Shown: positions 716 through 45,600 of the stretch, piece by piece | Layout of the letters: every line of letters begins with the position of its first letter | Numbering within the stretch: the stretch's first letter is position 1 | Source of the DNA: Camelus ferus | Taxonomy: Eukaryota | DNA length: 64,000 bases | Reading direction: 5' to 3' | Assembly: GCF_009834535.1 (NCBI RefSeq) | Contig: NC_045696.1 | Location: 32,738,001 to 32,802,000 of the forward strand | Position numbers and translations under genes: made by a program | The notes under the pieces: model-generated | The model's database searches: none | Told to the model about the DNA's origin: nothing | The model's input: the letters and a program-made list of their open reading frames with translations, nothing else

Positions 716-785
716 ATGTTTGTTCTCTTCTCCTTGTGCAATCTTTCCTTGGTACCAGCGGCTGCTTCAAAGAATAAAGTTAAAG
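716..785 (+). CDS. CADM2: Possible alternative first coding exon of CADM2: MFVLFSLCNLSLVPAAASKNKVK
   Basis: ATG 716-718 with A at -3 and an in-frame TAA at 707-709 upstream. Open and in frame with the microexon, using the same donor at 786. Resembles a human CADM2 isoform N-terminus I recall as MFVLFLCNLSLVPAAASKNKVK. Confidence 0.6.
759..785 (+). CDS. CADM2: CADM2 27-nt microexon (phase 1-1), encodes (A)AASKNKVK(G)
   Basis: Polypyrimidine tract, then CCAG (AG 757-758) | CGGCTGCTTCAAAGAATAAAGTTAAAG | GTGAG (786-790). The translation matches my recollection of the CADM2 N-terminus ...LLLQAAASKNKVKGSQGQFPL; 27 nt and frame-preserving. Confidence 0.9.
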
Positions 786-5589: not shown

Positions 5590-6060
5590 ACCTAGGCATA
5601 GGTCAAATCCTGGTTTTTCAGCTTACCTGATTTGAGAAACTGGACAATTGATTAAGTTCATTCAACCTTCAGTTGTGACATTTGTAAGAGATAATATATA
5701 AAAAGATATTAACTGGGAGGAGGTGGGTGGGAGAGGATAAACTGGGAGTTCGAGATTTGCAGATACTGACAGATACATATAAAATAGATAAACAAATTTA
5801 TACTGTATAGCACAGGGAAATATATTCAATATCTTGTAGTAGCTCCCGGTGAAAAACAATATGAAAATGAATATGTTTATTCATGTATGACTGAAAAATT
5901 GTGCTGTATACCAGAAATTGACACAACATTGTAAACTGACTATATAACTCAATAAAAAATATTAAAAAAAAAACAGAAAAAGATATTAACCTAGGAAATG
6001 GTACATAGTAAACACTCAGTAAAATTTACCTATCATTATGGTTGCTATCATTACTACTAT
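5590..6060 (+). mobile_element. MIR interrupted by an L1 3' end
   Basis: ggtcaaatcctgg...gagataatatataaa before the L1 and tggtacatagtaaacactcagtaaa after it join into one MIR. Confidence 0.65.
5714..5976 (+). mobile_element. 5'-truncated camelid-type L1 3' end with 14-nt TSD
   Basis: gataaactgggagttcgagatttgcagatac...ccagaaattgacacaacattgtaaactgac, AATAAA 5951-5956, A-rich tail; TSD AAAAAGATATTAAC at 5700-5713 and 5977-5990. Confidence 0.9.
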
Positions 6061-16275: not shown

Positions 16276-16640
16276 CATCATGCTAAGTGAAATAAATCAG
16301 ATGGACAAAGCTAAATATCACATATCACCAATACATGGAATCAAAATATGACACAAATGAACAAAACAGAAACAGACTCACAGATACAGAAAACAAACTA
16401 TGGTTAACGAAGCAGAAGGGGGAGTATAAATTAGGAGTTTGGGATTAGCAGATACAAACTACTATATATAAAATAGATTAGTAACAATGTCCTACAGTAC
16501 AGCACAGGGAACCATATTCAATATCTTGTAATACGTATAATGAGAAATAATATGTATATATAAATGTATGACTGAATTACTGTGCTGTACACCAGAAACC
16601 AACACAACATTGTAAATCAACTCTACTTTAAAAAAATAGG
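16276..16640 (+). mobile_element. 5'-truncated L1 3' end (cetartiodactyl-type)
   Basis: atgctaagtgaaataaatcag...aaaacagaaacagactcacagatacagaaaacaaact...gctgtacaccagaaaccaacacaacattgtaaatcaac, then an A-rich tail. Confidence 0.9.
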
Positions 16641-23264: not shown

Positions 23265-23352
23265 ACCTTAACCCTATCCCCTAACCCCTAAATCTAACTC
23301 CTAACCCAAACGCTAACCGTAACCCTAACCTCTAACCCTAATCCTGTCCCTA
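23265..23352 (-). repeat. Degenerate interstitial telomeric (TTAGGG)n array
   Basis: + strand ccttaaccctatcccctaacccctaaatctaactcctaacccaaacgctaaccgtaaccctaacctctaaccctaatcctgtcccta: roughly 13-14 degenerate CCCTAA units. Confidence 0.8.
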
Positions 23353-24086: not shown

Positions 24087-24386
24087 CTTTTCTTTTTTCT
24101 TTTCAACTTTGTAAATTGAGGTATAGTTGATGTACAATGTTACATGAATGTCAGGTGTACAACATAGTGCTTCACAATTTTTAAAGTTTATACTCCATTT
24201 ATAGTTATTATAAAATGTTGGCTATATTCCTTGTGCTGTTTAATATACCCTTATAACTTATTTATTTCATGTATAATAGTTTGTACCTCTTAATCCTCTA
24301 CCTCTAACTTTCCCCTCCCCCTTTCCCCTCTCTTCTTCTTCCTCCTTGATGGTAATCACTAGTTTATTCTCTGTATTTGTGAGACT
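24087..24386 (-). mobile_element. L1 3' end (older L1MA-like)
   Basis: T-rich tail, then aattgaggtatagttgatgtacaat...caggtgtacaacatagtg...ggtaatcactagtttattctctgtatttgtgag. Confidence 0.85.
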
Positions 24387-41081: not shown

Positions 41082-41599
41082 AAAGTATGGAGTTGGGAGA
41101 GGGGACTGACATCCAGGGATAAACTAAGAAGCTCAGTTTAAGACAGGAGGATGCTTATGCAGACCTCAAAATACAAAATCCTCTTGAGGGTCTACAAGTA
41201 TCTACCTACATTTCACTTGTATCTTGGTTTAGAAACCAAATTTTCATTTTTATCTCATCTCTTATGAGTGCAGTCTTTAGTGTTTAGCAATGAGGTTTCC
41301 TTTTGGTCTGTTTTCATTTCCAGTTTTCTTCACTCTTCACTCCAAATCCTCATCTTCATTGTTCTTTCTAGCTGAAAAATGTGGTCTTTTTGTCAGATGA
41401 GTCCCTTGATGGAAGTTAGGCAATACTAGATGCTCTAACAAATAGACCCCAGATGATGATTTGAACATAGTTAATGTACTTTTTTTTTTTCACTGTTACA
41501 CATCCATTGCCTTTATTACCTCATCTGCTTTTGTCCAATTTCTCTATCTGAGGCTTTATGGTGGGTGTCCATGACCAGAAGAAGAAATCATCATTCTCA

Positions 41600-41745
41600 C
41601 AATATAGTACATAGAAGATCATCCCTGGGACTTGTTTGAAGTTTATTTTCTCAGGTCCTAACCACAGGTATTTTTGTTCAGTGATTGTGGAGCAGGGGTC
41701 TTAATGTTAAGAGTGTCTGACATGATTTTGCTTCAGCGTTCTTCA
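41600..41745. mobile_element. MER5-like hAT remnant inside the transduced segment
   Basis: catccctgggacttgtttgaa...caggtcctaaccacagg..ttcagtgattgtggagcagggg resembles the MER5A core. Confidence 0.45.
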
Positions 41746-41891
41746 CACCATGTTGCTGCAAGCACCTCTGTCTTAGAGGAGCCTTGTTCCCCGGCTCCTT
41801 TCAGCTGCTGCATCTGATAGCCCTCTGCTTGGGTGACCCCTCCCCACACAGTGGCCTGGGAAGCTGCTTCCCATTACTTTTAACTCAGTTC

Positions 41892-42670
41892 TTTTTTTTT
41901 TTTCTTTTTGAGGGTTAGGCAAATCTTTTTTTTATTGAGTTATAATCATTTTACAATGTTGTGTCAAATTCCAGTGTACAGCACAATTTTTCAATTATAC
42001 ATGAACATACATACATTCATTGTCACATTCTCTTTCGCTGTGAGCCACAACAAGATCCTGTATATGTTTCCCTGTGCTACACAGTACAGTCTTGTTTATC
42101 TATTCTACATTTTGAAATCCCATTCTTCCCCTTCCTACTCCCCATCCCCCTGGCAACCACAAGTTTGTATTCTATGTCTATGAGTCTGTTTCTGTTTTGT
42201 ATTTATGTTTTGTTTTTTTTTTTTAGATTCTGCATATGAGCGATCTTGTATGGTGTTTTTCTTTCTCTTTCTGACTTACTTCACTTAGAATGACATTCTC
42301 CAGGAACACCCATGTTGCTGCAAATGGCGTTATGTTGTCAGTTTTTATGACTGAATAGTATTCCATTGTATAAGTATACCACCGCTTCTTTATCCAGTCA
42401 TCTGTTGATGGACATTTAGGCTGTTTCCATGTCTTGACTATTGTAAATAGTGCTACTATGAACATGGGGGCGCAGGTGTCATTTTGAAGTAGGGTTCCTT
42501 CTCGATATATGCCCAGGAGCGGGATTCCTGGGTCATATGGTAAGTCTATTCCTAGTCTTTGAGGAATCTCCATACTGTTTTCCACAGTGGCTGCACCAAA
42601 CTGCGTTCCCACCAGCAGTGTAGGAGGATTCCCTTTTCTACACAGCCTTTCCAGCATTTGTTATTTGTGG
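41892..42670 (-). mobile_element. Young 5'-truncated camelid-type L1 (ORF2 C-terminus, 3'UTR and tail)
   Basis: ORF 42223-42657 reads LGIDLPYDPGIPLLGIY...MFIVALFTIVKTWKQPKCPSTDDWIKK...EYYS...ILSEVSQKEK, the L1 ORF2 C-terminus. The upstream CW..C...[18 protein letters not shown] segment lies in another frame (1-nt frameshift near 42558-42560). AATAAA at 41936-41931. Confidence 0.95.
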
Positions 42671-45600
42671 CATAGTCAATGTACTTTTATTTTCTTGTTT
42701 ACCTATTGATCTGAGGTGAGTGTTCCTGATCTGAGGTGTGGCCCTTCTCAAGAAAGTTCATAGAAACAAGCTACCAAGGGCTTTGTCATCCTCTAAAGAA
42801 AAAAAGAGGCCTTAAGAGGCTATCTCAGTCAACTAGAAAGAGAGGAGGACATAGCAGAGTGCTGTGGGAATTTTTGGTGGGTCAAGCCTACAAAATAATC
42901 CCCTCTGCTCACAATCCTTTGTCATTCAACCATATGATCACACTAAAATTGAAAAGTAGAGAATGGGCAATGCGATCTACCATAAGGACAGGAAGAGGAA
43001 GAGGAACATTTTCATAAATAGCTAGCTGTCTCTGGACAAGAAATAACACTAAATGCTAGTTTTAGTCCACTTAACCCTACAACAGAAGCACTGATATCAT
43101 CAAACATGTATTTTCAGATTAGAGAAATGATCACTTAAAAAGTCTTTTGTTTGTTTCTATATTCAACATATCAATTTTTTTTTAATTTAAGTGGTCAAAT
43201 ATGCCTATGAATTAATCACTTACAGAGGATTTACTTAGTAATTAACTTTCTAGCCAATGGAAATGTTGTCAGGCACGCTGATATGTGAGTTGATCAGTCA
43301 AATAGGGTATAGTTCAGAGAAAGACTGGAGATTGCTGTATATTGGTTTAATGTCCTTGATTTTCCCAAACTTGAAGTTGAATGAGGACTAATGTCTGTTT
43401 CAACCTTGATCATTTCTGATACCTAACATAAAGAATGACACATTGTTCATAGTAAGTGCTAAAATAATATGTATAAACATGTATCAAATGAACAAAAAAG
43501 ACTAAAAGTTGATGAGACGTATAATTTCTTGTAAGTAATAACTAAATTATTAACTGTAACAGACTAAATATTTCCCTTTTAAAGGGAAAAAGTTCTACCT
43601 AGCCAGAAAAGCATTACATTAGTTTTTGAGGCTGATACTTCTTGTTTTGAAATTTATCTTGTGTTTGTGGAACTTGTTTACCTTTGATTACGCTTGGTAT
43701 GAAGCTCTTGCAATCTCATTAAATTCTTTGCTGTTTTTCAGCCTTACACCACTGTTTCCTCTACATCCTTTTGCTTTCTCAAGAAAAAAAAAAAAAAAAA
43801 GGAATTTTATGTCTGTATCTGAAAATGTACCAGAGTCTAAGAACACTGGCCAAGCATTGTCTATCAATAAACACATGTATAGTCTCCTCGTTTAAATGGA
43901 CAAGGGAAAATATTCAGTTGATTTCATATGCATATGGATGTTTTAAATTTAATGTGAATGTCCTAAAGACATTTTATACAGTATTATTCATGGTGGAGTT
44001 TCTTGTCATAAGACAGAAGCAATTAATAACAGAAAAACAACTATTTTCAGTGGTTTAAAGAGGAAGATTCTATGAAACATTTTTATATGTTAGTACAGCT
44101 ACCATACGCAAAACAGCATACACAAACATGCATTTTAATGTAAAGATATTCAGGAACTAGTTTTCATTTTACAACAATCCCAAGGGACATTTTATTTAAT
44201 GCTCATTCTTTATTATACCTTCAGTTGTAAAAATATATTCTCATGAAACCTTTTTATCAGTCTTTTGCAACCAGACAGATTACTCCCTCTTTTACACTAA
44301 GAAAAGCTCTGGAATTAGAAAATGTTTTCTTTAAAGTTTTGTATTTAATCTTTATTTTCCTGAAAGATAATGAAGACTGCCATTTCAATAGATCATCTTT
44401 AAGTCAGACATAAAATCATGTGGCACAGTAACTTTGGATAATGTTAGTAACTATTGTTAGGATAAGGAAGGCTGTAAAAAAAAAAAAAAAAAACTGGGAA
44501 AATAGCACAGCTGTATAGTTTATATTAAATAGCCAAGAGCCCCACAGCCTTAGTATTATAAATCTTCATGATACTAAAATATGATTTAAGTTTTCATTCA
44601 ATTTTTCCACATGTATAGCTAAATTATTACCAATCAGTTGAATCTAGAAAATACACTTAAATACATACATATAAATTATACACAGATGCACATACACATG
44701 CACATACATCATAATGATGAGGATGAGTCCTTCACTATCAAAATTTTGTCAAGTGATTTTAATAAACCTACATTAAAACTAAGGTGTAAACAAACTCAAA
44801 TTTAGAAATAAATAGAATGTTTAGCAGATGATTACTTAAGGAGACATCTAAGCAATAAGGAACTTCAGTGTCACGTATTGCTAAGACCCAAACCTTTGAA
44901 TGCTTCATTTGCCAAAATTGTTTTGTCAACTTTTCTGTCAGTTATTTCAAATCTTAAAAATTAGTACATTGACTTTTCTGCAAAACAGTTAAAACTATCC
45001 CATCTAAAAATTTTTACCCTTTTCTTGTATAATGAATTAGTACAATTATCATTGTTTCTGTTAATGAAGGAATTAGTAATATGGTAGTTCCTGGCCCAGG
45101 TCTTAAAGGTATAATTCAAAAAATTTGCATAGCATTTAACAGATTATGATGTATATTATATTGATGGTATTATATTGTAGCTTCATAAACCTGAAAAATA
45201 AAATCCATTCACTGTGCCTTATTAAGAGAATCATTTTTATTCAGAATTTTATAAACTGCTCTTTCCATTTGTCTATGATGACTTTTCTTCTTTAGCTGTT
45301 AGATATTTTTGCTTCCTCTAAATTCTACTCTGTGATATAGACTCTGTGCAACACTAGGTGAATTTGTGTGTTACAAGACTAGAGGTTGATCTTCCATTAT
45401 TTCAGTTACATGCAATCTGATACAATAAACTTACTTACTGACATGCAAAATGAATTATACTCTCACTTATGAGAAAACCATGCTCCAACACACAGTTGCT
45501 ATTCAGATAAATCCATTCACATCTACATGTTATTAGGTACTAAATTACCTTTAAAATAATTCAGTAATTTAAAAAATAGAAGATTTTTATTAAAGGATTC

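Follow-up and report, generated by a model that had tools for sequence, protein, structure and literature searches.

An old L1 insertion with a 401 nt carried segment in Camelus ferus, most likely an L1 3' transduction whose parent element has probably been lost

The stretch of DNA analysed here, referred to below as the window, comprises 64,000 nt of the Camelus ferus genome (contig NC_045696.1 of assembly GCF_009834535.1, positions 32,738,001 to 32,802,000, forward strand). Near its start lies a 27 nt microexon bounded by AG and GT (759-785, plus strand), which from a peptide motif we take to be the likely exon 2 of CADM2, and 40.7 kb downstream of it is a 1.2 kb insert, antisense to the host gene, in which a 5'-truncated L1 element is joined to a segment of non-L1 DNA. 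A splice-site exon scan gave 32 candidates with no convincing host exon among them, the insert adds neither AATAAA nor ATTAAA on the plus strand, and nothing points to a function for it. It holds seven acceptor-like sites, and the antisense L1 tail at 41919-42039 could be read as a candidate cryptic exon, with a pyrimidine tract, a TAG, a GTGAG donor and an open frame. The features of the insert are as follows.

41466 to 41483, no strand: copy of the target-site duplication (TSD) at the tail end of the insert, matching 42671-42688 at 17 of 18 positions (chance control 0/600)
41480 to 41490, minus strand: distal poly(A) tail, A11, of which four As are common to the TSD; one extra T in contig set X10
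41512 to 41517, minus strand: distal AATAAA, 21 nt before the tail; putative cleavage/polyadenylation site
41491 to 41891, minus strand: carried non-L1 segment of 401 nt (putative transduced flank), with no L1 match and with a second genomic copy
41630 to 41880, no strand: part of the carried segment with one paralogous copy (24 substitutions and one gap in 243 nt)
41642 to 41647, minus strand: internal AATAAA, apparently bypassed
41892 to 41909, minus strand: A5-G-A12 tract, the putative poly(A) tail of the parent L1
41910 to 41925, minus strand: 16 nt spacer between the A-tracts, possibly an earlier short transduction
41926 to 41936, minus strand: the L1's own AATAAA and A8 run (41933-41926)
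41937 to 42670, minus strand: 5'-truncated L1 of 734 nt, with the end of ORF2 and the 3' UTR, antisense to the host gene
42223 to 42558, minus strand: C-terminal frame of ORF2; a frameshift near 42558 splits off the upstream ORF2 codons
42671 to 42688, no strand: TSD copy where the L1 5' end meets the target, with AT directly after it (plus-strand nick TTTT/AT)

The two copies of the 18 nt repeat differ at a single position (T at 41472, C at 42677) and their identity stops sharply at both ends; in the chance control, none of 600 random 18-mers from the window had a partner matching at 17 or more positions 100-2000 nt upstream. As the preliminary description had proposed, this one TSD encloses more than the L1, bracketing the element and the non-L1 segment jointly, and a direct repeat around the L1 alone was looked for and none was found. 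Read along the minus strand, the insert comprises in turn TSD, L1 (42670-41937), AATAAA with A8, 16 nt spacer, A5-G-A12, the segment (41891-41491), A11 and TSD, with the L1 3' end, carrying its own poly(A) signal and tail, lying 5' of the extra segment in the same orientation. The L1's own AATAAA (41936-41931) and the A-runs at 41933-41926 and 41909-41892 lie exactly where they had been placed, and this signal ends 21 nt before the second A-tract. The distal AATAAA (41517-41512) also ends 21 nt before its tail, inside the 10-30 nt range given in PMC13009371; this spacing holds as described earlier, but of the eleven As at 41490-41480 four belong to the TSD, and the two AATAAA motifs listed at that time, although both correct, left out a third on the minus strand at 41647-41642. 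The nicked strand reads TTTT/AT, one base off TTTT/AA, in agreement with the earlier view that the empty site is close to the L1 endonuclease consensus, and polyadenylation signal, tail and nick motif are all in register at the 18 nt repeat. The target may be an MLT1 LTR and the segment may include a MER5-like piece, both names being given from resemblance. Outside the insert, the left flank at 41418-41451 matches another locus at 30 of 34 positions in all three contig sets considered below, and is therefore regarded as a dispersed repeat.

Identification of an antisense L1 as the core of the insert is borne out by protein comparison, in which the L1 frame matches the C-terminus of human ORF2p with an E value of 2.4e-36 (PDB/protein search) and finds its best matches among camel L1 ORF2 sequences at 80-86% identity; a Pfam search with the 145 aa frame returned no families. 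Two other L1 3' ends in the window cease aligning at the same end point as this one, and the sequence beyond it can thus be taken as non-L1. Other L1 3' ends in the window are more diverged and lie at 5777-5959 (82%), 16278-16616 (66%) and 24108-24205 (65%) when compared with this L1, and the A-tail of the one at 5777-5959 is also interrupted.

The non-L1 DNA beyond the L1 end, put at about 400 nt in the preliminary description, measures 401 nt (41891-41491), and comparison within the window gives no L1 match for it. A self-search of the window found no second copy of 41491-41891, an nhmmer comparison with the window yielded no hit below E 0.39, Rfam gave no RNA-family match to the segment, and a protein search with one of its 13 short frames gave no candidate relative. 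Two short patterns were used in metagenome scans, the first finding no loci and the other 19, all of which were rejected as chance matches of 19-27 nt in CpG-rich, microbial-looking contigs. Within the 16 nt spacer, positions 41910-41920 look like some one and a half repeats of a telomere-like unit, a resemblance probably due to chance, and elsewhere in the window 23265-23345 is occupied by a degenerate array of telomere-like hexamers (period 6, 12.8 copies).

A search of sequencing runs with 41100-41930 gave 23 runs, 20 of which are contig sets containing 0.94-1.00 of the query words, and four of the 23 were aligned: the contig sets X15, X7 and X10, which represent three camel-like organisms, and the raw-read run X22, which contributed one read only and is uninformative. 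The filled junction, running from the flank through TSD and tail into the segment (41100-41659), lies on one contig without a substitution in each of the three contig sets, and the insert is therefore common to all three organisms; no empty allele was seen in these sets, all of them from close camel-like relatives. Each set also has a second contig over 41640-41860, with 24-25 substitutions and one gap, representing a paralog of the carried segment that is at least 250 nt long and about 89% identical (about 10% diverged) to it. A second locus had been predicted for 41491-41891, and one paralogous contig in each of three sets answers that prediction over 41630-41880; the paralog of 41491-41629 and beyond was among the matches listed in none of the sets, although from the break between nodes at 41630 a second branch is to be expected. 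The paralog and the window copy are joined via shared nodes at 41630-41669 and 41831-41872, the former having depths of 22.6, 27.2 and 20.5 against 7-14.5 for single pieces, which is roughly doubled. Among the matches listed for the three sets there was no sibling insertion and no further copy at 85% identity or more, the copy count being a lower bound. The paralogous locus is the likely source of the carried segment.

Over 243 nt the two copies differ at 24 sites, including 21 transitions, with a K2P distance of 0.109 and about 0.067 at non-CpG positions; a difference at 41792, present in the X15 paralog only, was left out of the divergence counts. That site is one of two CpGs kept in the window copy, and its change in the X15 paralog marks a polymorphism at the paralogous locus. 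The paralog has seven CpGs and the window copy two, all five discordant CpGs having decayed in the window copy, and this polarity, which alone is not significant (p 0.057-0.063), suggests that the derived copy is that in the window. There is also a strand skew over 41640-41860, with T in the window copy and C in the paralog at 12 sites and A in the window copy and G in the paralog at three (p 0.07, base composition considered), the plus strand here being that of the first-strand cDNA. APOBEC editing of the cDNA was considered and is not claimed, the sequence contexts not being TC-rich by eye.

At 10 of 94 residues the L1 ORF2 departs from the majority of eight camel L1 proteins (the others differ at 5-12 of 94), which by our own conversion is taken as about 5% at the DNA level. 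The segment has likewise diverged by about 5% per lineage (half of the K2P distance between the copies), matching the age of the L1 part itself, and the similarity of these values fits a single event. Mammalian DNA accumulates substitutions at a rate near 2e-9 per site per year. The insertion can thus be roughly dated to 15-25 million years ago, near or before the split of Old World and New World camels, for which one study gives about 16.3 Ma (PMC12337305).

The source of the segment had been expected to lie directly 3' of a surviving L1, an expectation that probably fails. From the equivalent of 41843, with two differences, the paralog contig extends upstream without a break, by 2337 nt in X7 and by 808 nt in X10, the sets in which it was among the records listed (it was not in X15). 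We considered whether these contigs, of 2375 and 846 nt, could be the X7 and X10 organisms' own allele, and rejected this, there being two differences in the last eight aligned bases against no substitutions in about 770 elsewhere. In X15 the contig of the window copy stops some 73 nt beyond 41881, a short way into the L1, and the continuation of the window copy here was listed in one of the three sets. Contigs in these sets break at shared 31-mers, and in simulations of a 700 nt L1 at 4-5.5% divergence none of 4000 runs lacked an exact family 31-mer, while at 10% divergence 5% did. Since an L1 3' end is expected to break contigs and the paralog's contig is unbroken, an L1 of this age is probably absent upstream of the paralog. 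The parent L1 has thus probably been lost, as judged from the extent of the unbroken contig in two of the three sets, and the event would be a 'parentless' transduction.

We consider it highly probable that the insert represents one L1-made insertion, in which an L1 and 401 nt from one other locus are enclosed by a single TSD, that it arose most likely by 3' transduction, and that the parent L1 has probably been lost since. The hallmarks at the insert and the one second locus in all three contig sets support the earlier reading of the structure as an L1 read-through 3' transduction. A full-length parent L1 with an A5-G-A12 tail would have stood just upstream of the paralogous locus, and the 16 nt spacer would likely have come from that parent's own parent; with 21 nt from the AATAAA to the next A-tract, it is plausible that the spacer at 41910-41925 records an earlier mini-transduction. 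Transcription would have bypassed the L1's AATAAA and that at 41647-41642, with cleavage occurring 21 nt after the AATAAA at 41517-41512. To judge from the hallmarks, ORF2p would have nicked the presumed CADM2 intron at TTTT/AT and primed on the new tail, and target-primed reverse transcription would have copied the tail, the flank and 734 nt of L1 before stopping inside ORF2, leaving the 18 nt duplication. The copy would then have been fixed and, like other methylated DNA, would have lost CpGs; the parent allele may never have been fixed, or may have been deleted.

The apparent lack of an L1 upstream of the paralog (0/4000 simulated elements without a family 31-mer) would also be expected of a template-switch chimera in reverse order, in which ORF2p would have started on the poly(A) tail of a cellular RNA made at the paralogous locus and, after 401 nt of copying, would have switched to the tail of an L1 RNA from elsewhere, the source never having had an L1. 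This reading, which would also agree with the paralog having kept more CpGs, as less methylated DNA would, is nonetheless improbable. Parentless transductions, themselves common, would look no different, the segment shows neither an ORF relative (one of 13 short frames searched) nor an RNA family, and the chimeras set out in the available part of one report carry the foreign RNA 5' of the L1, not 3' (bioRxiv 10.1101/2025.02.02.635956). Were it true, some of the mammalian 'parentless' transductions would be template switches and not cases of lost parents. Less probable again is a transduction whose true source is a third locus absent from the matches listed, the paralog then being a sibling or proxy copy with cleavage past the internal AATAAA at 41647-41642. 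In all three sets the paralog can indeed be followed no further than 41630, which lies 12 nt beyond that signal, but one substitution would be enough for a break at this point and the matches listed are a lower bound; the shared node has the depth expected of two copies, and an L1 3' end would be expected upstream of a sibling.

Two further readings seem to us barely tenable. The presence of two tails would suit a pair of events, with an orphan transduction or retrocopy arriving first and an L1 landing later at its 5' end, and A-rich sites attract L1 insertion; yet the L1 alone has no bracketing direct repeat, and both parts give the same age. It is just as doubtful that the 401 nt are ancestral here and the other locus derived, with the 18 nt repeat due to chance or to a DNA-level duplication. 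In its favour, no empty allele was seen in the three contig sets, but the chance control for the TSD, the alignment of signal, tail and nick motif with the repeat, and the CpG decay that points to the window copy as derived all stand against it.

On the preferred reading, the insert is an old, fixed, partnered L1 3' transduction, the product of an ordinary and well-known process, and constitutes a clean fossil of such an event in camels with a traceable source, although of little significance alone. Its one tail probably records three L1 generations. Scored by presence or absence, the insert could be used as a marker near the Old World/New World camel split, and it could also offer a small test of how CpGs decay once DNA has been duplicated.

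Partnered L1 3' transduction has reportedly been studied by Moran (1999), Goodier (2000), Pickeral (2000) and Szak (2003). Its anatomy is defined in three papers (PMC4862182, PMC13009371, PMC9311842), and the camel insert agrees with it in having TSD, L1, unique segment, new AATAAA and new poly(A) in order, two tails, an intronic target and a carried segment whose 401 nt fall within the range of 8-997 nt given for human germline events in PMC9311842. About 25% of L1 insertions have transductions according to PMC13009371, which places poly(A) signals 10-30 nt from the end in 274 of 349, counts two tails in 215 of 297 and describes bypassed canonical signals. Unlike known partnered transductions, the camel insert is old and fixed, at about 10% divergence from its paralog, and not polymorphic, and it belongs to the camel lineage. 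A literature search that covered mainly openly available papers found no survey of camelid L1 transductions, and the available part of a camel repeat survey mentions transduction once (PMC8605555).

Other L1 products offer further points of comparison. RNA/L1 template-switch or ligation chimeras, as presented in the available part of bioRxiv 10.1101/2025.02.02.635956, share with the camel insert one TSD around L1 and non-L1 sequence, but are of the U6 type with the foreign part 5' of the L1, whereas in the camel it is 3'. Short transductions of less than 50 bp, which according to PMC4862182 and PMC13009371 arise by cleavage just past the source A-tract, resemble the camel 16 nt spacer, which lies between A-tracts with 21 nt from AATAAA to the next tract; its 16 nt are, however, too short to map, and tail decay may also explain it, another L1 end in the window likewise having an interrupted tail. 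The closest parallels for the source are the 'parentless' transductions of dogs, where two studies report sources without an adjacent L1 in 17 of 18 (PMC7980453) and 24 of 27 cases (PMC13141329), and the non-human primate sources with hardly any full-length donors, as given in PMC4862182. Whereas the parents in the dog and primate cases are there thought to be still segregating, the camel parent would be long lost, its absence being deduced from contigs; like these cases, the camel transduction has a source locus apparently without an adjacent L1.
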